Assembly (NCBI GenBank): GCA_041653955.1
Contig: JBAZEH010000003.1
Location: forward strand, 6,558 to 70,557
Direction: 5' to 3'
From: Candidatus Omnitrophota bacterium
GTDB taxonomy: Bacteria; Omnitrophota; Gorgyraeia; Gygaellales; Profunditerraquicolaceae
DNA length: 64,000 nucleotides
In this document: one piece after another, positions 2,360 through 53,632 of the stretch
Numbering within the stretch: position 1 is the first letter of the stretch
How the letters are laid out: every line of letters starts with the position of its first letter
Notes under the pieces: generated by a model
The model's database searches: none
Told to the model about the DNA's origin: nothing
What the model saw: the letters and a program-made list of their open reading frames with translations, nothing else
Program-made: the position numbers and the translations under genes

Positions 2360-2371
2360 ATATTTAGTTGC

Positions 2372-2444
2372 GCCGGCGTAGCTCAGTTGGCAGAGCAGCT
2401 GTTTTGTAAACAGCGGGTCGGGGGTTCAATTCCTCTCGCCGGCT
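2372..2444 (+). tRNA. tRNA-Thr (anticodon UGU)
   Basis: Manual cloverleaf: acceptor GCCGGCG/CGCCGGC, D arm GCTCAGTTGGCAGAGC, anticodon stem GCTGT/ACAGC with loop TTTGTAA, T arm GGGGGTTCAATTCCTCT. Confidence 0.85.
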
Positions 2445-2469
2445 TTTGAAAATAAGGAAGTTTGTGAAT

Positions 2470-2756
2470 GGGTAGGTACCCAAGTGGCCAAAGGGGGCAG
2501 ACTGTATAAAAGCAGCTTCATGCCGAAAGGCATGATGAAAAAGTAGGTGAATTCAGGGAACCCCTTGATTTAACTTAAAACCAAGGGCAATCCTGAGCCA
2601 AGCCCGCAAAAGAATACGCGGGAAGGTGCAGAGACTAAGCGCCTACCACCTGTCGGCGATGCCAAGGTGAAGAGATAGTCCAAGCCTTAAGGTAACTTAA
2701 GGGCACTTGAAATCTGCTGCGCTTGCGCTTCAGAGGTTCGAATCCTCTCCTGCCCA
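2470..2756 (+). tRNA. tRNA-Tyr (anticodon GUA) interrupted by a 204-nt group I intron in the anticodon loop; exons 2470-2505 and 2710-2756
   Basis: 5' half GGGTAGGTACCCAAGTGGCCAAAGGGGGCAGACTGT matches bacterial tRNA-Tyr up to anticodon position 35. 3' half AAATCTGC + long variable arm TGCGCTTGCGCTTC + AGAGGTTCGAATCCTCT + CCTGCCCA completes the cloverleaf (acceptor GGGTAGG/CCTGCCC). Confidence 0.85.
2506..2709 (+). mobile_element. group I self-splicing intron (IC3-like, Azoarcus/Anabaena tRNA-intron type) inserted between anticodon positions 35 and 36 of tRNA-Tyr
   Basis: 5' exon ends in U (2505) that can wobble-pair with G2512 of an internal guide GCAG (P1: ACUGU/GCAG). P2 hairpin CATGCCgaaaGGCATG. 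Core motifs CAGAGACTA (2629-2637), GAAGAGATAGTCC (2669-2681) and GAGCCAAGC (2595-2603) match the R/S and P7 elements of small tRNA group I introns. Last intron nt is G2709 (omega G). Confidence 0.8.
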
Positions 2757-2943
2757 TTTAAATTCTCCTTATTGGAGATTTGAATAGCACTTTCATCAGC
2801 GACAGCTATGCGATAAGCCGGGCAGTGAGTGAAAGTGCATACCACCAGTTTGTTCTTTGCGACAGCAAAACAGCCAGCGGTAGAGCATGTTATCGCGCAG
2901 CGCCCGGAGCTAAGAGGTGTTGTGTCGGCGTGCGCTAATTAGC

Positions 2944-3014
2944 GCGGGAGTAGTTCAGTGGTAGAACAATAGCCTTCCAAGCTATATATGGGGGTTCGAT
3001 TCCCCTCTCCCGCT
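2944..3014 (+). tRNA. tRNA-Gly (anticodon UCC)
   Basis: Acceptor GCGGGAG/CTCCCGC, D arm TAGTTCAGTGGTAGAACA, anticodon stem ATAGC/GCTAT with loop CTTCCAA, T arm GGGGGTTCGATTCCCCT. Confidence 0.85.
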
Positions 3015-3068
3015 TAAACTTAATTTTAATGTAAAACCGCAACTATCACATAGCGAGGTAAAAAGACA

Positions 3069-4251: not shown

Positions 4252-5250
4252 ATGCGTAAAATCGCTGTCTCCATTTTAGGCGATGGAGGATGGGGGACTA
4301 CCCTGGCGATATTGCTGTATCAAAAAGGGTTTGATGTAACTTTATGGGGAGCTTTCAAGGATTACGCCTCCTACCTGGATAAAAAAAGGATAAATATAAG
4401 GTTCCTGCCGCGGGTCAGGATACCTAAGGGTATAAAAATAACTCCGGAACTGGAAGAAGCCGTATGCGCAAAGGAACTGATCATACTGGCTGTCCCTTCG
4501 CAGTATCTGCGCGGAGTCCTGAAAAAGGTCAGGAGGATGGGGCAGGCAGGTAAGGCGGTATATTTAAGCGCGGCCAAAGGGATAGAGATAGGCTCGCTGC
4601 AGAGGGTCTCTGAAGTAATGCGCGATGAATTGGGCGGCGTGAAATTGGCAGTCCTTTCAGGCCCTACAATAGCGCATGAAGTGGCAAGGGGGGTACCCAC
4701 TACTGCTGTGATCGCCTCCCGTGATAAGAATTTAAGAAAGCGCCTGCAGGGTATGCTTATGACGGAGCGCTTCAGGGTTTATACAAACCCTGACCTGATC
4801 GGGGTAGAATTGGGGGGTAGCCTTAAAAATATAATCGCTATCGCCTGCGGCATATCTGATGGTTTAGGTTTTGGCGCGAACACAAAAGCCGCCATACTCT
4901 CTCGCGGGTTAGCCGAGATCTCCAGGTTAGGGCGCGCTATGGGAGCAAACGTAAAGACTTTCAGCGGGATAAGCGGGCTGGGAGACCTGGTTACTACCTG
5001 TATCAGTCCTTACAGCCGCAATAGAAGCGTGGGTGAACAGATCGGTAAAGGAAAGACAATGAAGGAGATAATGGCCCATATGCAGATGGTTGCGGAAGGG
5101 GTGCCGACCGCCAGGTCAGCATACGCTTTGAGCATGAAATATAAAGTGGATATGCCTATTACAAGGGAAGTTTACGCCGTTCTTTATAGAAATAAATCTC
5201 CCAGGCGCGCAGTGCGTGATCTGATGACGCGGGAGAAGAAAGAAGAGTAG
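4252..5250 (+). CDS. gpsA: glycerol-3-phosphate dehydrogenase [NAD(P)+]
   Basis: MRKIAVSILGDGGWGTTLAILL... Rossmann N-terminus plus GLGDLVTTC and MQMVAEGV motifs typical of GpsA. Confidence 0.9.
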   Translation: MRKIAVSILGDGGWGTTLAILLYQKGFDVTLWGAFKDYASYLDKKRINIRFLPRVRIPKGIKITPELEEAVCAKELIILAVPSQYLRGVLKKVRRMGQAGKAVYLSAAKGIEIGSLQRVSEVMRDELGGVKLAVLSGPTIAHEVARGVPTTAVIASRDKNLRKRLQGMLMTERFRVYTNPDLIGVELGGSLKNIIAIACGISDGLGFGANTKAAILSRGLAEISRLGRAMGANVKTFSGISGLGDLVTTCISPYSRNRSVGEQIGKGKTMKEIMAHMQMVAEGVPTARSAYALSMKYKVDMPITREVYAVLYRNKSPRRAVRDLMTREKKEE

Positions 5251-11978: not shown

Positions 11979-13191
11979 GGGATTGGTCGTTCAAAAATTC
12001 GGCGGTTCGTCGGTTGCAAATGTAGAACGTATCCAGGAAGTTGCACGCCGCGTAGTAAGTTACCGTAAGAAAGGTTATGACCTGGTAGTGGTGGTTTCCG
12101 CGCTTGGTGATACTACAGATGAACTGGTAGAACTCGCCGGACAGATCACCCATGAGGCATCAGAGCGCGAAATGGATATGCTCCTTTCTACGGGAGAACA
12201 GATATCCGTGGCATTGCTGGCAATGGCGATACATAAACTGGGTTTTGAGGCGATATCCTTTACTGGAGCGCAAGTCGGGATAATCACCGATACCAGCCAC
12301 ACCCGCGCGCGTATCATAAAGATAAACGCGGATAAGATAAAAGAAGAGCTAAAACTCAACAAGATAGTTATAGTCGCTGGTTTTCAGGGGGTTACGCTGA
12401 ACCATGATATTACCACTCTAGGGAGGGGAGGTTCAGACCTTACCGCTGTTGCGCTGGCCAAGGAGCTTTCGGCGCGCGAATGCGAGATCTATACCGATGT
12501 TGAGGGTATATACAGCGCAGATCCGCGCGTAGAGCCGAAGGCAAAGAAGATAAAGGCGATCACTTATGACGAGATGCTTGAGATGGCGTCCCTTGGGGCG
12601 CAGGTTATGCAGGCGCGCTCCATAGAGGTGGCCAAAAAATTCAACGTAGATATTCATGTGCGTTCCAGCTTTAACGATCAACCCGGGACGATCATTACCA
12701 AGGAGGTCAATAAAATGGAAGAGGTGGTTGTAAGCGGCATAACATTGAATAAGAATGAAGCTAAGATCACGATATGCAATGTTCCTGACCGCCCGGGTAT
12801 CGCGGCAAAAATATTCAAACAGCTGGCCGAAAAGGGGATAAGTGTTGATACGATAGTCCAGAATGTCAGCCATACGCGCCAGACAGATATATCGTTTACC
12901 GTTAATAAAGCGGATACCAATAAGACCGTGAAGCTTGCCAGGAAGATCGCCGCGAGTATCGGCTCAGGAGAGGTATTGCAGGATGAGGGAGTTGCCAGGA
13001 TCTCAATAGTAGGCGTAGGGATGAAATCGCATCCGGGCGTGGCGGCGACCATGTTTGATTCTTTAGCGCGCAATAAGATCAATATTGAAATGATCTCTAC
13101 TTCAGAGATCAGCATTTCGTGTATTATAGAAAAGAAGTTCGCCGAAAAAGCGGTCAAGGCACTGCACGCTAAATTCGGCCTGTCTAAATAG
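11971..13191 (+). CDS. lysC: aspartate kinase
   Basis: VQKFGGSSVANVERI... kinase N-terminus plus two C-terminal ACT domains. Confidence 0.9.
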   Translation: MHKGLVVQKFGGSSVANVERIQEVARRVVSYRKKGYDLVVVVSALGDTTDELVELAGQITHEASEREMDMLLSTGEQISVALLAMAIHKLGFEAISFTGAQVGIITDTSHTRARIIKINADKIKEELKLNKIVIVAGFQGVTLNHDITTLGRGGSDLTAVALAKELSARECEIYTDVEGIYSADPRVEPKAKKIKAITYDEMLEMASLGAQVMQARSIEVAKKFNVDIHVRSSFNDQPGTIITKEVNKMEEVVVSGITLNKNEAKITICNVPDRPGIAAKIFKQLAEKGISVDTIVQNVSHTRQTDISFTVNKADTNKTVKLARKIAASIGSGEVLQDEGVARISIVGVGMKSHPGVAATMFDSLARNKINIEMISTSEISISCIIEKKFAEKAVKALHAKFGLSK

Positions 13192-13248
13192 GGACACCCT
13201 TTTTGCCAATCGAGGGACACCCCTTCTGCTAAAGCTAAGGGTGTCCCC
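13191..13248 (+). repeat. palindromic intergenic repeat, family GGGACACCC-N-GGGTGTCCC (copy A: two GGGACACCC(C) half-sites plus GGGTGTCCCC)
   Basis: GGGACACCCtttttgccaatcgaGGGACACCCCttctgctaaagctaaGGGTGTCCCC; same arms and same loop sequences recur at 20374-20489 and 53568-53602. Confidence 0.8.
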
Positions 13249-13267
13249 AAGAGAGAAAGAAGGAGAG

Positions 13268-18419: not shown

Positions 18420-20411
18420 GTGGAAAAATTCAGGTTGTTCTCGGATTATAAGCCTTGCGGAGACCAGCCCAAGGCGATAAAAGAATTAACTGATTCTATT
18501 AATTCGGGGAAGAGCTATCAGACCTTGCTTGGTGTGACCGGCTCAGGCAAGACTTTTACGCTGGCTAATGTCATAGAAAAGGTAAACCGCCCCACGCTGG
18601 TAATCTCTCATAATAAAACACTCGCCGCCCAGCTGTATTCGGAGTTTAGGGAGTTCTTCCCGCGTAATGCCGTAGAATATTTTGTAAGTTATTACGACTA
18701 TTACCAGCCTGAGGCATACGTGCCTTCGACTGATACCTATATAGAGAAAGACGCATCCATCAATGACAGGTTGGATCGCCTGCGGCTCTCCGCGACCACC
18801 TCGCTTATGTCCCGGCGCGATTGTCTTATCGTAGCATCCGTATCCTGCATATATAACCTCGGTTCTCCAGGAGAATACCGCGATATGCTTGTTCTTATTG
18901 AAAGGGGAGAAGTTTTATCGCGCGATGACTTGCTGCGCGGGCTCCTTAAGATACAATATGAAAGGAATGATTATGAATTTATCCGCGGCAAGATAAGGGT
19001 AAGGGGGGATGTGGTGGAGGTATTTCCTTCATACGAAGAGGCGGCCCTGCGCGTAGAGTTATCCGGAGATTTGGTTGAGAAGGTATCGCGAATAAACCCT
19101 GTTTCGGGTGAAGTTTTGGATCATCTGGATAGGATAGCTATATATCCAGCCAAGCATTTTATCTTTTCCGGGGAGAAGTTGGATGGGGCGCTTAATTCTA
19201 TAAACAGCGAATTAGAGGACAGGCTTAACTTTTTAAGGAGCAAAAATAAATTATTAGAGGCGCAGCGCCTTGAATCCCGCACTAAATATGATATGGAGAT
19301 GCTTAAGGAGATGGGCTATTGCCACGGGATAGAGAATTATTCACGCCACCTTTCGGGAAAGCCTCCGGGCTCAAGACCTTATTGTCTGATTGACTATTTT
19401 CCGAAAGACCTCCTGGTAGTGATAGATGAGTCCCACGTGACCTTACCTCAGATAAGAGGGATGTATGAAGGTGATCAAGCCAGGAAAAAAGTGCTGGTAG
19501 AGTACGGGTTCAGGTTGCCTTCATGCCTGGATAACCGCCCTTTAAGATTCGATGAATTCGGGGAGTTGGTAAAACAACAGGTATTTGTTTCTGCCACGCC
19601 GGATGAATATGAGATAAAGAAGAGTGGTGGGGTTGCTATTGAACAGATCATACGCCCTACCGGCTTGATCGATCCCGAAATAATAATTAAGCCTATCGAC
19701 GGGCAGATTGAGGATCTGATCAAAGAAGCCAGAAAGCGTTCTGCCCGCGATGAGCGTGTCCTGATTACGACCCTGACCAAAAGGCTTGCAGAAGATTTAA
19801 CTACCTATTTACAGGAGAAGGGTTTAAAGGTAAAATATTTACATTCAGAGGTTGAGACTATTGAACGCTCAAGGATCCTCAGGGAATTAAGGCGTAAGGA
19901 ATTTGATTGCCTGGTAGGGATAAACCTGTTAAGGGAGGGGCTAGATCTTCCCGAAGTTTCACTTGTAGCTATCCTGGACGCGGATAAGGAAGGTTTCTTA
20001 AGGTCGGCGACCTCGCTGATTCAGGTAGCCGGGCGCGCGGCGCGTAATATAAACGGGACCGTGATAATGTATGCCGATACGATCACGGGTTCGATGAAAA
20101 AGGCGATTGCCGAAAGCAGTAGAAGAAGAAAGAAACAGATTGAATTCAATAAGAAAAATAAGATCACCCCGCGTTCCATTGAAAAAAGCATAAAAGAGGG
20201 GATCGAAGACTTGCAGGAAGCGCAGGTATTCGTGGCAGAGCTGACCGGGCAGGATAAAGATGAGTATGAATTAAGCAGGTATATTTCGGAATTAGAATAC
20301 GATATGGAATTGGCAGCGCGGAACCTGCAGTTTGAAAAGGCAGCGGTCATCCGCGATAAAATCAAACAACTCAGGGACACCCTTCCAGCCAAAGCTAAGG
20401 GTGTCCCTTAA
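18420..20411 (+). CDS. uvrB: excinuclease ABC subunit B
   Basis: GVTGSGKTF Walker A, helicase motifs, C-terminal UVR domain; GTG start. Last codons plus stop are supplied by a GGGACACCC...GGGTGTCCC repeat. Confidence 0.95.
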
Positions 20412-20489
20412 GAGTATTTAAAGGTATTAGTGGGGACACCCTCCCGATTGGCAGAAAGGGTGTCCCTCGATTGGCAGAAAGGGTGTCCC
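20374..20489 (+). repeat. palindromic repeat cluster (copy B: two GGGACACCC-N16-GGGTGTCCC palindromes plus tandem duplication of tcgattggcagaaagggtgtccc)
   Basis: GGGACACCCttccagccaaagctaaGGGTGTCCC (20374-20407) overlapping the uvrB stop. GGGACACCCtcccgattggcagaaaGGGTGTCCCtcgattggcagaaaGGGTGTCCC (20433-20489) abutting the coaX ATG. Confidence 0.8.
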
Positions 20490-20490
20490 T

Positions 20491-21234
20491 ATGATGGTGG
20501 TTGATGTGGGGAATACGAATATAAGTTTGGGTGTGTTCAGGGGGAAACTCCTGATCAAGAGGCTTACTATTCCTACCGGAACAGGGGATTACAGGGGCCG
20601 CTTTAAGCGGATTATCGGCCGCAGTAAGGTTGATGATATAGTGATCTGCAGTGTGGTCCCTTCAGCCGAGAATGCCATAGTAAAACAGCTTATCTCTCTT
20701 ACCGGTAAACGCCCCTATATTATAGGTAAGCAGATAAAGGTCCCTATAAGAAACCTTTACCGTAAGCCGCGCCAGGTTGGACAGGATAGGCTGGTTAATG
20801 CTTATGCCGGGGTGAGATTACACGGGGCCCCACTGGTCATAGTTGATTTTGGTACTACCGTTACCTTTGATGTGGTTTCCGCCAGAAAAGAGTATTTGGG
20901 AGGTATGATCATCCCGGGTTTAGGGATCTCATTAGAATCGCTTAATCAGCGCACAGCGCTCTTGCCGAAAATCAAGTTAGAAGAACCGGCTGAGTTTATC
21001 GGGCGCGATACCAGGAATAGCATGTTAAGCGGAATAGTATATGGTTTTGCCGCGCTTACCGATAATATGGTTACAATGATAAGAAAGAAGATAGGCAGCA
21101 AGGCTAAGGTGGTCGCTACGGGGGGGAGTGCCCGTATGATCTTTAAATATTGCCGCAAGATAGATAAGATAGATGAGGACCTGACGATCAAGGGGCTGAA
21201 ACTTATCATGGATGATGCGGGCCATGATAATTAG
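20491..21234 (+). CDS. coaX: type III pantothenate kinase
   Basis: MMVVDVGNTNISLGVF... ASKHA fold N-terminus typical of CoaX. Confidence 0.85.
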   Translation: MMVVDVGNTNISLGVFRGKLLIKRLTIPTGTGDYRGRFKRIIGRSKVDDIVICSVVPSAENAIVKQLISLTGKRPYIIGKQIKVPIRNLYRKPRQVGQDRLVNAYAGVRLHGAPLVIVDFGTTVTFDVVSARKEYLGGMIIPGLGISLESLNQRTALLPKIKLEEPAEFIGRDTRNSMLSGIVYGFAALTDNMVTMIRKKIGSKAKVVATGGSARMIFKYCRKIDKIDEDLTIKGLKLIMDDAGHDN

Positions 21235-21794: not shown

Positions 21795-23444
21795 ATGGCA
21801 AAGGAACTGTTGTTTAAGGATGAAGGCCGCAGGAAGATATTAAGCGGTGTCGAGCAGTTAGCCGCTGCGGTAAAGGTGACCCTGGGGCCTAAGGGCCGTA
21901 ATGTGGTCATAGATAAGAAGTTCGGTTCACCCACCATAACCAAGGACGGCGTGACAGTCGCCAAAGAGGTTGACCTGTCTGACCCATTTGAGAATATGGG
22001 CGCCCAGATGGTTAAAGAGGTAGCGGAGAAGACGTCGGATATCGCCGGAGACGGCACCACTACCGCGACGGTCCTGGCTGAAGCAATATACCGCGAAGGC
22101 CTGAAGAACGTTACTGCCGGAGCAAACCCGATGGCTTTAAAGCGCGGGATCGAAAAGGCAGTAGAAAAAATAGTAGAGGAATTAAAGAAACTCTCTACGC
22201 CTATTAAAGATAAAAAAGAGGTCGCCCAGGTAGCCTCTATAGCTGCAAATTGCGATAACGCTATCGGAGACCTTATAGCCGAAGCTATGGATAAGGTAGG
22301 CAAGGATGGAGTTATTACAGTTGAGGAAGCAAAGTCAATGGCTACGACCCTGGAAGTAGTGGAGGGTATGCAATTTGACCAAGGTTATCTTTCTCCTTAT
22401 TTTGTGACCGACACCGAGAGGATGGAAGTAATATTAGAGGATCCTTACATACTTATCCACGAGAAGAAAATATCTTCTCTTAAGGACCTTTTACCTTTGT
22501 TAGAGAAGATCGCCCGCACCGGAAAACCGCTTCTGATATTAGCCGAAGAGGTTGAAGGAGAGGCGTTGGCTTCGTTGGTAGTAAATAAGATACGCGGCAC
22601 CTTGTCTGCTTGCGCGGTAAAGGCCCCCGGTTATGGGGACAGGCGCAAGGCGATGCTTGAGGATATCGCTGTCTTAACCGGAGGAAAGGCGATTACCGAG
22701 GAATTGGGCATAAAGCTTGAGAACGTTGATATCGAAGACCTTGGCCGCGCGAAGAGGGTGAAGGTAGACAAAGAGAATACTACCATAGTTGAAGGCGCCG
22801 GCAAGACACAGGGTATTAACGGCAGGATCGCCCAGATCAAGAAGCAGGTAGAAGAATCCGATTCGGATTACGATAAGGAAAAACTCCAGGAGCGTTTAGC
22901 AAAGCTCGCGGGAGGAGTCGCGGTTATCAATGTGGGCGCTGCTACAGAGACCGAGATGAAAGAGAAGAAGGCCCGCGTAGAAGACGCTTTGCACGCTACC
23001 CGCGCAGCTTCCCAGGAAGGCATAGTTCCCGGTGGCGGAGTAGCATTGTTACGCGCGCTTCCGGCGCTTGAAAAGATAGCCAAGCTTGAAGGCGACGAGA
23101 AGATCGGAGTGGATATAATAAGGCGCGCGTTAGAGGCCCCTATAAGGCAGCTTACGGCTAATGCCGGTTTAGAGGGTTCGGTAGTAGTGCAGCGCGTAAA
23201 ACAGGAGAAGACCAACATAGGATATGATGTGACCCAGGATGCCTATGTGGATATGATAGAATCAGGGGTTATCGACCCGACTAAGGTTACTCGCTCTGCC
23301 TTGCAGAACGCGGCTAGCGTTGCCGGGTTATTATTGATGACTGAAGCAATAATCACGGATAAACCCGAGAAGGAATCACCCATGCCTATGCCTCCGGGCG
23401 CAGGAATGGGAGGAATGGGCGGAATGGGCGGGGGGATGTATTAA
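21795..23444 (+). CDS. groEL: chaperonin GroEL
   Basis: Full-length Cpn60 with C-terminal GGM repeat tail. Confidence 0.97.
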
Positions 23445-23514
23445 TACCACCTCTGCCAGTAGGGATTGCCCCCGCAGGGGGCTGTCCTACGACAAGGTAA
23501 CTATTGAAGTCAAG

Positions 23515-23550
23515 AAAAGGGGCGAAGGTAAAACTTCGCCCCTTTTCTTT
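23515..23550. terminator. strong (potentially bidirectional) rho-independent terminator after groEL
   Basis: AAAAGGGGCGAAG-gtaaaa-CTTCGCCCCTTTT followed by CTTTT; the reverse complement is also followed by a U-rich tract. Confidence 0.8.
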
Positions 23551-23554
23551 TAGC

Positions 23555-23700
23555 GGACTGCCTTGGCTTGCTTACGCAGTACCGCTCGGATTTCCCCACC
23601 GAGAAAATCCTCGCTTGGAGTTTCTGCTCGTTCTCACAGACAGGTATTAACGGGTGGACCCTGGCCGCTCGCATAAACTACATGCTGCCTAAAGCAAGCC
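23555..23700. ncRNA. candidate structured small RNA (possibly 6S-like); strand and identity unresolved
   Basis: GGACTGCCTTGGCTTGCTT (23555-23573) pairs with AAGCAAGCCAAACCAGTCC (23682-23700), 17 of 19 bp around a 2x2 internal loop. They enclose ~108 nt with several local hairpins (CTCGG...CCGAG, GGGTggACCC). No convincing ORF; sits between the groEL terminator and the guaB promoter. Confidence 0.35.
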
Positions 23701-23883
23701 AAACCAGTCCGCTGAAATACTTAGTGCGCGTATTGGCGACACTTTCGCGGAGGGTTTGTGGGCGTGCATCAGAAATTGTTCGGTAAAAGTATGCAAGGAT
23801 TTACGACGAGCGAGTGCAGGAATTGACATTTGTCAGCGAACAATCTCAGCACGCGAGCAAAGCCCGCAGTGAAAACATTGCCA

Positions 23884-23912
23884 AAAATAATTATTGACAA
23901 GGAGCGCGGATT
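23884..23912 (+). promoter_or_regulatory. sigma-70 type promoter for guaB-guaA
   Basis: TTGACA (23884-23889) - 17 nt - TAAAAT (23907-23912), preceded by an A/T-rich tract. Confidence 0.55.
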
Positions 23913-24011
23913 GGGGTAAAATTTTACACAACCTTTCTTAAAACAACCCCACAAAGAGGTTAAATATTCTTAACACATTGAAAAACAATAACTTATACGA
24001 GGAGAATTAAC

Positions 24012-25172
24012 ATGGGAGAGTGGATAGGCATAGGCAGGCGTGCTCGCAGGTGTTATGGCTTTGATGAAGTGGCGCTCGTTCCTGGAGCGCAGACAGTCAA
24101 TCCTAACGAAGTAGATACTTCTTTTGAGATAGCCGGAAGAAAGTTCAAGGTCCCTATTATGGCCGCGGCAATGGATGGCGTCGTAGACGTTGAATTCGCT
24201 GTTGCGATGTCTAAAATAGGAGGCATAGCGGTCCTGAACCTGGATGGCGTCCAGACGCGCTATGAGAATCCCGATGATGTCCTTGATAAGATCGCCAAGG
24301 CAACTCCCGAAAAGGCGACTGAACTTACACAATCTATATATACCACCCCAATAAAAGAGAAGCTGGTCTCTAAGAGGGTCCGGGAGATCAAGCGCAAGAA
24401 GGGTACCGCGGTTGTAAGTTGTATCCCCGCCCACGCTGAAAGATTCGCTAAGCTCGCCATAGCGGCAGGCGCGGATATGTTCGTTGTGCAATCAACAGTG
24501 ACCACCACAAAGCATATTACAAGTGAATATAAGAGCCTGGACCTGTATAAATTCTGCAAATCTACCAGGATACCCGTGATCATAGGTAATTGCGTGACTT
24601 ATGAGACTACGCTGGCGCTTATGGAGACAGGGGTCGCGGCTTTATTGATAGGTATAGGCCCGGGAGCTGCCTGTACTACAAGAGGCGTCCTTGGCATAGG
24701 TGTCCCGCAGGTTACTACTACCGTGGACGCGGCGGCAGCGAGGGATTTTTATTTTAAGAGCAAGGGTAGGTATGTCCCCATAATTACTGATGGCGGTATG
24801 AACCGCGGAGGTGATATATGCAAGGCTTTCGCCGCAGGTGCTGATGCGGTTATGATCGGTTCCAGTTTTGCCCGCGCCAAAGAATCTCCCGGCAGGGGTT
24901 ATCATTGGGGTATGGCTACATCTCATGTAAACCTGCCTCGCGGTACGCGCATATACGTAGGCACTACCGGGACACTCAAAGAGATACTTTTCGGCCCGGC
25001 AAAGGTGGATGACGGTTCGCAGAACCTGATCGGTGCGCTTAAGACCTCAATGGGGTCCCTGGGCGCTATGAATTTAAAACAGATGCATGATGTAGAGATC
25101 ATTATTGCGCCCTCTATACAGACTGAAGGGAAGATATTCCAGGTAGGGCAGAGAGTAGGGATGGGAAAATGA
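24012..25172 (+). CDS. guaB: IMP dehydrogenase family protein lacking the CBS subdomain
   Basis: Catalytic loop GIGPGAACTTR (cf. IMPDH GIGPGSICTTR), TIM barrel; 386 aa leaves no room for the CBS pair. Translationally coupled to guaA. Alternative: GMP reductase. Confidence 0.7.
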   Translation: MGEWIGIGRRARRCYGFDEVALVPGAQTVNPNEVDTSFEIAGRKFKVPIMAAAMDGVVDVEFAVAMSKIGGIAVLNLDGVQTRYENPDDVLDKIAKATPEKATELTQSIYTTPIKEKLVSKRVREIKRKKGTAVVSCIPAHAERFAKLAIAAGADMFVVQSTVTTTKHITSEYKSLDLYKFCKSTRIPVIIGNCVTYETTLALMETGVAALLIGIGPGAACTTRGVLGIGVPQVTTTVDAAAARDFYFKSKGRYVPIITDGGMNRGGDICKAFAAGADAVMIGSSFARAKESPGRGYHWGMATSHVNLPRGTRIYVGTTGTLKEILFGPAKVDDGSQNLIGALKTSMGSLGAMNLKQMHDVEIIIAPSIQTEGKIFQVGQRVGMGK

Positions 25173-32054: not shown

Positions 32055-32070
32055 GAAGGCACATTTTCCC

Positions 32071-32099
32071 TTGACATCGTAAATTTTTGGTATTATTAT
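32071..32099 (+). promoter_or_regulatory. sigma-70 type promoter for the HU/IHF gene
   Basis: TTGACA (32071-32076) - 17 nt - TATTAT (32094-32099), then GAGGAGG SD. Confidence 0.55.
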
Positions 32100-32123
32100 A
32101 GTTAGACATAGAGGAGGTGCCAT

Positions 32124-32396
32124 ATGACCAAGAAGGATATTATTTTAAAGGTATCTGATGAGACGAACCTGAAGCAAATAGATGTAAAAAAGGTCGTGCA
32201 AAAGACATTTGACTGCATAATTGAGGCCCTGATAAGAGGGGAAAAGATAGAGTTGCGTAATTTCGGCGTTTTTAAGATAAAACAGAGAAAAAGCCGTATA
32301 GGCAGGAACCCCCGCACAGGCCAGGTAGTCCCTGTTCCGTCCAGAAAAGTAGTTATCTTTAAACCAGGCCTGGAGATAAAGAAGAAAGTCAAATAA
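32124..32396 (+). CDS. HU/IHF family DNA-binding protein
   Basis: 90 aa, ...LRNFGVFKIKQRKSRIGRNPRTGQVVPVPSRKVVIFKPG beta-arm motif. Confidence 0.85.
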   Translation: MTKKDIILKVSDETNLKQIDVKKVVQKTFDCIIEALIRGEKIELRNFGVFKIKQRKSRIGRNPRTGQVVPVPSRKVVIFKPGLEIKKKVK

Positions 32397-32458
32397 AGAA
32401 TCAATTCATAGTTTGAGCCCGCCATACAAATCCGGACTATATATAACCATTATTACTT

Positions 32459-52262: not shown

Positions 52263-53591
52263 ATGAGTATCAATATTATGGATAAGATAGTCGCCCTCTG
52301 CAAACGCAGGGGCTTTGTATTCCAGTCCTCGGATATATACGGCGGTTTAAGCAATACGTGGGATTACGGCCCGTATGGCGTGGAGCTGAAGAATAATGTC
52401 AAGCGCGCCTGGTGGAGGTCCGTAGTTTATGAGCGTAATGATATCCTGGGTATGGATGCCGCGATATTAATGCATCCTAAGGTATGGCAGGCATCCGGGC
52501 ACGTGGATAATTTTTATGACTTAAAGAGTGACTGTAAATCCTGCAAGAAACGTTTCAAGGCGGCTGACCTGAAAGACCCCAAAAAGTGCCCTGAATGTAA
52601 GGGTGATCTGACAGAGGCGCGCCCATTTAACCTGATGTTCAAGACGCACCAGGGGCCCGTAGAAGATGAAGGGAACTTGCTTTATTTAAGGCCCGAGACA
52701 GCGCAGGGTATCTTCGTGAATTTCTCGAATATCCTTGATTCCCGCCATCCCAAACTTCCCTTTGGCCTGGCGCAGATAGGCAAGGCATTTCGCAATGAAA
52801 TTACCCCGGGGAATTTTACTTTCCGCACGCGCGAGTTTGAGCAGATGGAGATAGAATATTTTGTCAGGCCCGATGAGGCGGATAAAAAGCTGGAAGAGTG
52901 GATTGATTACCGTTTCAGCTGGTATCCGGCTTTAGGGATGAAGAAAGAGAATTTGAGGAAGCGCCCGCACGCTAAAGATGAACTCGCGCATTACGCCAGG
53001 GCGTGCACCGATATAGAATATAATTTTCCTTTCGGGTGGTCGGAACTTGAGGGTATCGCCAACAGGACTGATTTTGACCTGAAACAGCACGCGCAAACCA
53101 GCGGAAAGGACCTGCAATATTTTGACGACGCGGCAAAGACTAAATTTTACCCGTATATCATAGAGCCGTCAGGCGGGGTGGATAGGGCGGTATTGGCGTT
53201 CCTGACTGATGCTTATCATGAAGAAAAGGTCAAAGAAGATACGCGCGTTGTACTTAAGCTCCATAAGGATCTTGCTCCGGTAAAAGTGGCGGTGTTGCCG
53301 CTTTTAAAGAACCGCCCGGAGATAGTTGAACTGGCAAAGAAGCTGGCACAGGGTTTGAAAAAGAGCATTGTCACGGTATATGATGATACCGCGGCTATCG
53401 GCAAGCTTTACCGCAGGCAGGATGAAGTCGGAACGCTCTATTGCGTTACCGTGGATGTGCAGTCATTGGAAGACAAACAGGTAACTGTCCGGGACAGGGA
53501 TACAATGAAGCAGGACAGAATAGGGATAGATAATTTAAAAGGTTATCTTACAGAAAAACTTAACGAAGGGGACACCCTCCCGATTGGCTGA
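52263..53591 (+). CDS. glyQS: glycine--tRNA ligase (dimeric alpha2 type)
   Basis: Class II motifs, insertion with zinc-ribbon-like CKSCKKRF...CPECKG, C-terminal anticodon-binding domain; last codons and stop lie in a GGGACACCC repeat. Confidence 0.9.
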   Translation: MSINIMDKIVALCKRRGFVFQSSDIYGGLSNTWDYGPYGVELKNNVKRAWWRSVVYERNDILGMDAAILMHPKVWQASGHVDNFYDLKSDCKSCKKRFKAADLKDPKKCPECKGDLTEARPFNLMFKTHQGPVEDEGNLLYLRPETAQGIFVNFSNILDSRHPKLPFGLAQIGKAFRNEITPGNFTFRTREFEQMEIEYFVRPDEADKKLEEWIDYRFSWYPALGMKKENLRKRPHAKDELAHYARACTDIEYNFPFGWSELEGIANRTDFDLKQHAQTSGKDLQYFDDAAKTKFYPYIIEPSGGVDRAVLAFLTDAYHEEKVKEDTRVVLKLHKDLAPVKVAVLPLLKNRPEIVELAKKLAQGLKKSIVTVYDDTAAIGKLYRRQDEVGTLYCVTVDVQSLEDKQVTVRDRDTMKQDRIGIDNLKGYLTEKLNEGDTLPIG

Positions 53592-53602
53592 AGGGGTGTC
53601 CC
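53568..53602 (+). repeat. palindromic repeat copy C: GGGACACCC-N16-GGGTGTCCC
   Basis: GGGACACCCtcccgattggctgaagGGGTGTCCC; loop nearly identical to the 20433-20466 copy. Confidence 0.8.
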
Positions 53603-53632
53603 TAAGAATGAAAAAGGAGGGTTTTAAAGGAA

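Follow-up and report, generated by a model that had tools for sequence, protein, structure and literature searches.

What occupies the unusually long spacer between groEL and guaB3 in this Omnitrophota genome, and is it the RNA gene that its letters first suggested? Omnitrophota is a widespread, mostly uncultured phylum with compact genomes. To our knowledge, neither repeat families nor families of non-coding RNA have been reported from it, and a literature search for 6S RNA, structured RNAs or repeats in Omnitrophota returned no paper. In the window, by which we mean the whole 64-kb stretch of DNA that was analysed, genes are closely packed and lie on the plus strand. The groEL-guaB3 spacer measured 567 nt (23445-24011) and was the longest protein-free gap in the window except for a tRNA/intron cluster at 2360-3068, bearing out the view of the first-pass annotation that it is unusually long. 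That annotation had described a structured RNA candidate in the spacer, with a helix closing 146 nt and an architecture resembling 6S RNA. Our analysis resolved the spacer into two conserved elements, the one already noticed (D1) and a second (D2) that adjoins it on the right, beyond the coordinates previously considered. The features of the site are as follows.

21795-23444, plus strand: groEL (Cpn60), the left flank of the insertion site, from the ORF list and the groES-groEL-guaB3 order of relatives with Pfam Cpn60 matches
23512-23549, both strands: bidirectional intrinsic terminator hairpin of groEL, with perfect 16-nt arms at 23512-23527 and 23534-23549
23548-23717, minus strand: D1, from repeat finder, folding, nhmmer envelope (23548-23741) and covariation
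23718-23742, no strand: linker between D1 and D2
23743-23874, plus strand: D2, a shortened copy of a rod-hairpin family, from fold, family alignment, nhmmer score and family covariation
23894-23922, plus strand: sigma70-like promoter of guaB3 (TTGACA-17-TAAAAT), the right flank of the insertion site, a motif kept in the window and in the loci L082, L004, L205 and L207
24012-25172, plus strand: GuaB3-family IMP dehydrogenase-related gene, from the ORF list and protein similarity

The inverted repeat that had drawn attention to D1 was real and far beyond chance. A pattern search with AAGCAAGCCAANNCAGTCCGC matched 23553-23573 on the minus strand and 23692-23712 on the plus strand with 0 mismatches, where 0.01 would be expected by chance, and a repeat finder extended the arms to 23548-23573 and 23692-23717 (26 nt, 88% complementary, 118 nt apart). 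The arms did not recur elsewhere in the 64-kb window, which contains one D1 and one D2. The 5' arm had been placed correctly, and the 3' arm, given as 23682-23700, had been set 10-12 nt too far to the left; the segment closed by the arms measures 160-170 nt rather than 146 nt, and D1 as a whole about 175 nt. The single 2x2 internal loop described for this helix holds on the plus strand, and on the minus strand one of its two positions is a G-U pair. Folding z-scores of -5.5 on the plus and -5.8 on the minus strand, with no fold as good in 200 shuffles, agreed with the earlier call of a structured segment. Inside the terminal helix lie an inner helix GCAG/CTGC and a junction with two or three short hairpins, and the minus strand carries four to five GAGCG/GCGAG motifs. 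D1 is a closing helix around a multi-hairpin junction, with no rod and central bubble, and the proposed 6S-like architecture was not supported.

Covariation among homologs, suggested at the outset as a check on the fold, was found. Iterated nhmmer searches yielded 21 near-full-length D1 homologs among the loci listed. Compensatory changes were present at 21 of the 34 pairs of the D1 structure, compared with 6.8 in shuffles and at most 7 in slid controls, and 93.6% of cells were paired compared with 81.9% in shuffles, values equalled by none of 500 shuffles. The closing helix itself covaries, CCTTGG/CCAAGG in the window corresponding to CCGAGG/CCTCGT in L004. The minus strand, which had been suggested as the RNA strand, gave the better fold in 20 of the 21 homologs (mean difference 9.9 kcal/mol). 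A minus-strand alifold consensus contained 31 pairs, 24 of them with compensatory pair types, and the consensus pairs on this strand comprised 581 Watson-Crick cells, 11 G-U and 6 A-C.

D2 folded as a rod hairpin with the core CATYAGAAATTTTTYGGCA...ACGGCRAAAAATTTCAGC. When a degenerate pattern of this core was scanned over metagenomes, at least 120 contigs matched; of the 120 listed, about 28 represented one human-gut sequence and were removed as false positives, and about 92 were true homologs, so that the family has at least about 92 members, from sediment and groundwater samples. Full-length members measure about 190-210 nt. From the base upwards, a long basal stem of variable sequence leads into the helix GCGUGC/GCACGC, a near-invariant 11-bp AU helix (GAAAUUUUUUG/CAAAAAAUUUC) and the helix GUCUGC/GCAGAC, beyond which follow an AAGGA/CCGUA internal loop and the helix UUACG/CGUAA. 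The distal part consists of a symmetric purine loop, GAGCGA opposite GAGCGA, which is built from the same motif that recurs on the minus strand of D1, and a variable tip. In some subfamilies the purine loop is swapped for Watson-Crick pairs (GTTGCT/AGCAAC, GGCGTT/AACGCC), and in the family alignment the tip region varies while its pairing is kept.

Projection of the fold of the full-length homolog L083 onto a MAFFT alignment gave a D2 covariation (82 sequences) of 0.198, compared with at most 0.124 in slid controls, and the observed values were reached by none of 500 shuffles; one pair is UA in 48 sequences, CG in 23 and GC in 9, and another is CG in 49 and GC in 28. RNAalifold on the D2 MAFFT alignment recovered 12 pairs only, because the variable outer stems were misaligned. 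Opposite to D1, the plus orientation folded better, in 83 of the 88 distinct members listed (mean difference 8.9 kcal/mol). In the window copy about 52 nt are missing from the distal 3' half, the junction being near 23830, and its nhmmer score was 70 bits against a family median of 127. Both the basal stems and the AU-rich helix are retained (motifs at 23771-23785 and 23833-23846), and in the AU helix a U-A pair has become G-C, a compensatory change that is unique to this copy. Since an independent assembly (L001) has a sequence identical to the window D2, the deletion is no assembly error.

The two elements are separate modules in a constant divergent order, D1 on the minus strand and then D2 on the plus strand. 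The gap between them, whose counterpart in the window is the linker at 23718-23742, measures 23-110 nt in about 15 loci and 0.4-3.3 kb in about 10 others, where it contains unrelated accessory genes (L173, L144, L177, L141, L123, L174, L160 and L121 being loci with genes inside). According to Pfam these genes differ by contig and include ORF6N, Fic/DOC, a DpnI restriction enzyme, a trypsin-like peptidase and unknowns, and variable genes seem to gather in the gap as in a small hotspot. At most D2 loci, D1 is missing from the vicinity. A strict pattern found the D2 rod enclosed by the terminal helix sequence of D1 (5' AGCGGGTGGCTTGG ... CCAAGACAGGACCCGCT 3') in L172 and L144, and in part at six further loci.

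Neither D1 nor D2 was present at guaB3 in seven loci of relatives with 88-91% GuaB3 identity, in four of which (L082, L205, L206 and L207) groEL immediately precedes guaB3. About 6 nt separate the groEL terminator of L205 and L206 from the sequence upstream of the promoter, AAAATAATCGTTGACAAT; L207 has a different 58-nt palindrome at this spot and L082 yet another palindromic insert. Judging from these spacers, the groEL-guaB3 spot seems to collect small palindromic elements. The element-free spacers of relatives lead us to conclude that the window bears an insertion of about 325 nt, at about 23552-23878. Its junctions are A/T runs (TTTT^AGCGG...CCGCT^AAAA; ...ATAAA^TTTTAGGG...CCCTAAAA^TTAA, with ^ at the junction) with no unambiguous direct repeat, and because they are A/T-rich no target-site duplication could be called. 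The terminator at 23512-23549, correctly described before as symmetric, consists of a perfect 16-bp palindrome between A/T runs; it is part of the host site and not of D1, because the same GGGCGAAG...CTTCGCCC terminator is found in the empty sites of L205, L207 and L082.

Several smaller features were seen around this site. A small GC hairpin (GCCCCC GCA GGGGGC, 23468-23482) lies between the groEL stop codon and the terminator and is missing in the spacers of relatives. The 5' UTR of guaB3 (23925-24000; ACAACCTTTCTTAAA...ATATTCTTAACAYATTGAWAAAYAATAACTTAT) shows strong conservation among the window, L082, L004 and L207, and partial conservation in L205; it has no Rfam match and could serve the guaB3-guaA operon as a leader or regulatory element. 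A second short palindromic intergenic repeat family, AGGGACACCC...GGGTGTCCCT, stands at gene ends in the window (13188-13249, 20373-20492 and 53568-53603), and a related palindrome, AGGGACAGCGACTAC...GTAGTCGCTGTCCCT, fills the groEL-guaB3 site in L207 (2315-2375); these repeats and the L207 palindrome look like REP-like elements or mobile terminators.

The distribution of the elements also spoke against a single-copy status of the candidate, D1 being missing from this spacer in closer relatives and D2 forming a multicopy family. A survey of guaB3 covered 80 loci from species-representative genomes, and the element was missing at 77 of these, as it was in the seven close relatives. L004 held a colinear homolog of the entire 23510-23890 stretch, upstream of guaB3 in the same order; in L020 and L052 only the right-hand part had a homolog, which was inverted and lay at other positions. 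Only the window, L004, L020 and L052 carry an Omnitrophota label, the other homologs being metagenome contigs without taxonomic classification. L052 belongs to the complete Omnitrophota genome CP070655.1; at 4263-4368, some 170 nt away from its D1/D2 homolog, it has a c-di-GMP-I-GGC riboswitch (68.6 bits).

Two or three D2 copies per contig, mostly as divergent pairs, were found on seven contigs (L202, L147, L172, L121, L092, L194 and L093), which gives a density, from a scan of contigs only, of up to three D2 per 12-kb contig compared with one in the 64-kb window. Copies on the same contig are 64-83% identical to one another, and each has relatives of 85-97% identity on other contigs, which looks less like a recent burst than like paralogous lineages that are old and maintained. 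In one D2 subfamily, copies that are 94-96% identical over about 170 nt have no homology beyond the rod, even on 12-14-kb contigs, and D1 homologs of 77-84% identity have unrelated outer flanks. The neighbours of copies are housekeeping genes such as tmk, holB, asd, cysS, murJ and folD. In 47 of 52 cases the genes on the two sides of D2 are co-directional, and D2 is antisense to them 32 times and sense 15 times. Among 130 neighbouring proteins within 2.5 kb of the copies, no Pfam family occurred in more than four and no transposase, RAYT, integrase or reverse transcriptase stood out; no autonomous insertion sequence with the same ends was seen among the loci examined. A blastn search of plasmids gave no match, and the single match in a viral scan (L210) was rejected as not D2, since it sits within an ORF.

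We put the probability at roughly 55% that D1 and D2 are new REPIN/ERIC/MITE-like structured intergenic repeats that inserted in a hotspot. The insertion of about 325 nt in the spacer would then consist of two members of undescribed Omnitrophota hairpin-repeat families. In D1, a 26-bp terminal inverted repeat closes a small multi-hairpin junction, and selection would act on the minus-strand structure. D2 is normally a rod of about 190 nt, almost fully paired, with an invariant AU-rich helix and selection on the plus-strand structure, the window copy being a deletion derivative. Both would be non-autonomous and would have spread or been exchanged among intergenic sites beside housekeeping genes. 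The selected feature would be a hairpin on one specific strand, and a single-stranded form would therefore be what is recognised, either ssDNA in mobilisation or RNA. Mobility, the single-stranded intermediate and any trans-acting enzyme are what we infer, and what we observed in support of this reading are the conservation and covariation, the strand asymmetry, the multiple D2 copies per contig, the sharp edges in unrelated contexts, the empty sites in close relatives and the lack of an own terminator or a recurrent partner gene. Against mobile repeats stand the absence of a transposase, RAYT or reverse transcriptase beside any copy, the lack of a clear target-site duplication at the A/T-rich ends, the resemblance of same-contig copies to old, maintained paralogous lineages, and the presence of only one copy of each element in this 64-kb window. 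The near-invariant internal loops and 11-bp AU helix, kept across about 90 diverse sequences, are also more typical of functional RNA than of selfish DNA.

Among described systems, REPINs are REP doublets that form hairpins and are mobilised by the RAYT tyrosine transposase, their interior changing while the hairpin is kept; they are non-autonomous, stand beside housekeeping genes and persist as populations inside lineages (PMC3337134, PMC3116915). D1 and D2 are similar in that their inverted halves form a long hairpin that is kept while the interior varies. However, REPINs are about 89 bp long with two REPs of about 20-35 nt, number in the hundreds and lie on either side of a RAYT gene, whereas D1 and D2 measure 175-250 nt, contain long invariant stretches, occur in one to three copies per contig and have no RAYT among the 130 neighbours. 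The terminal inverted repeats of D1 (26 nt, 88% complementary), the same helix around D2 in L172 and L144, the sharp edges at unrelated sites and the empty site in L205 and L206 are reminiscent of MITEs. The ERIC/IRU repeats of enterobacteria and the Correia, RUP and BOX elements are imperfect palindromes that lie in either orientation between co-directional genes, and ERIC/IRU and MITE-like repeats are unusually conserved across species, with sharp boundaries, truncated variants and no coding capacity. D1 and D2 are likewise intergenic imperfect palindromes, non-coding, with sharp edges and shortened variants, but they have no sequence relation to these repeats, are longer, covary in a strand-specific manner and form a fixed divergent pair of two families, sometimes with accessory genes between them. 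A terminal inverted repeat around short hairpins beside a long rod hairpin, with structure selected on particular strands, also recalls the msr-msd of retrons; here, however, there is no adjacent reverse transcriptase (guaB3 lies downstream), and D1 and D2, by their order and by the strands they prefer, do not match a single transcript that carries msr and then msd. Retrons, integron attC sites, IS110 bridge RNAs and TnpB/IscB omega RNAs were all set aside, as no reverse transcriptase, recombinase or nuclease recurs nearby and there are no arrays.

A serious alternative, though in our view a less likely one, is that D1 on the minus and D2 on the plus strand instead encode two new classes of trans-acting small RNAs and are transcribed divergently, forming small paralogous families whose varied contexts reflect genome rearrangement and a recombination hotspot between the two. 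Strand-specific covariation with its G-U asymmetry would be expected of such genes, and the near-invariant loop and helix sequences across the roughly 90 homologs listed, the age of the same-contig paralogs (64-83% identity, with closer relatives on other contigs) and a divergent order that stays constant even at 0.6-2.3 kb separation fit as well; the purine motif GAGCG/GCGAG common to both could be a shared protein-binding site. On its minus strand, the D1 of the window runs directly into the bidirectional terminator, as the first-pass annotation had pointed out, but here this terminator is that of groEL, and a terminator-like hairpin follows only one of 21 D1 copies, the window's own, and one of 100 D2 copies. 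Transcription is further put in doubt by the lack of a sigma70-like promoter on the minus strand or anywhere in 23548-23890, and the 23-30 nt that separate the elements are too few to hold a promoter for each; an antisense promoter candidate in D2 (TTGCAG-17-TCTAAT) was dropped, its -35 matching at three of six positions and its -10 lacking the A at position 2. Nor do small-RNA genes sit easily with copies of 94-96% identity in wholly unrelated 12-14-kb contexts, with elements missing around guaB3 in the closest relatives, or with a shortened D2 in the window. A similarly tentative proposal is that D1 and D2 are two new Omnitrophota-specific functional structured RNA classes, a divergent pair with GAGCG/GCGAG as a common protein-binding motif and a gap at which accessory or defence genes (DpnI, Fic, ORF6N) would dock; the pair may be a system for cassette capture or mobility, guided by RNA or ssDNA, that has no counterpart among those described. 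Mobile repeats and small RNAs are compatible readings, because a mobile element may act through its RNA.

A housekeeping RNA, whether 6S, SRP, RNase P or tmRNA, is very improbable. The loose fit of size (about 175-190 nt), paired 5' and 3' ends and non-coding sequence, with the rod shape of D2 added, places the elements in the size class of 6S RNA (RF00013), but the suggested comparison with 6S, SRP and other Rfam models gave no match: in Rfam 15 at E<=10 on both strands, no family was found in window 23400-24050 or in L083 2330-2790, only terminator noise, nothing reached gathering score for the element in the window or in 20 homolog loci, and ARAGORN called no tmRNA. The multi-hairpin junction of D1 is also unlike a bubble plus terminal stem, the sole large loop of D2 is the symmetric GAGCGA x GAGCGA, which is Watson-Crick-paired in some subfamilies and no open central bubble, and a multicopy D2 and the variable presence of both elements in the same spacer of close relatives do not suit such an RNA. 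Even less credible is a cis-regulatory leader or riboswitch of guaB3; the position upstream of guaB3 in the same order in the window and L004 would agree with it, but the element lies upstream of the conserved guaB3 promoter, is inverted or downstream in L020 and L052, is missing at most guaB3 loci and has about 90 homologs beside unrelated genes in varying orientation. Just as little can be said for a decayed pseudogene or unannotated small protein gene. Although ORFs of 48-72 aa overlap the element, the 1-2-nt indels that D1 homologs carry within the 72-aa ORF rule these ORFs out, in line with the earlier statement that no credible ORF is present; no frame is conserved, the ORF frames differ between the window and L004, and the substitutions in helices are compensatory rather than synonymous.

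This one spacer holds two families with some of the clearest covariation obtainable from metagenomes, neither of them in Rfam. If mobile, they would be unusually large and deeply conserved hairpin repeats whose strand-specific structure points to a single-stranded intermediate; if RNAs, they would be two new structured RNA classes tied to an accessory-gene hotspot. D1 and D2 can be modelled and annotated in hundreds of genomes, which would prevent their being mistaken for 6S RNA or small ORFs.

Elsewhere in the window, the second-longest plus-strand protein-free gap (32055-32458, about 405 nt) contains only a 107-aa minus-strand ORF. In the tRNA/intron cluster, a group I intron (Rfam 99.7 bits; 2495-2702) splits a long-arm tRNA at 2469-2755, for which ARAGORN made no call on the genomic sequence. 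A group I intron in tRNA-Leu(UAA) is the classic cyanobacterial-type arrangement, found here in an Omnitrophota genome: when the intron was removed in silico, one junction (2499/2696) gave tRNA-Leu(UAA).
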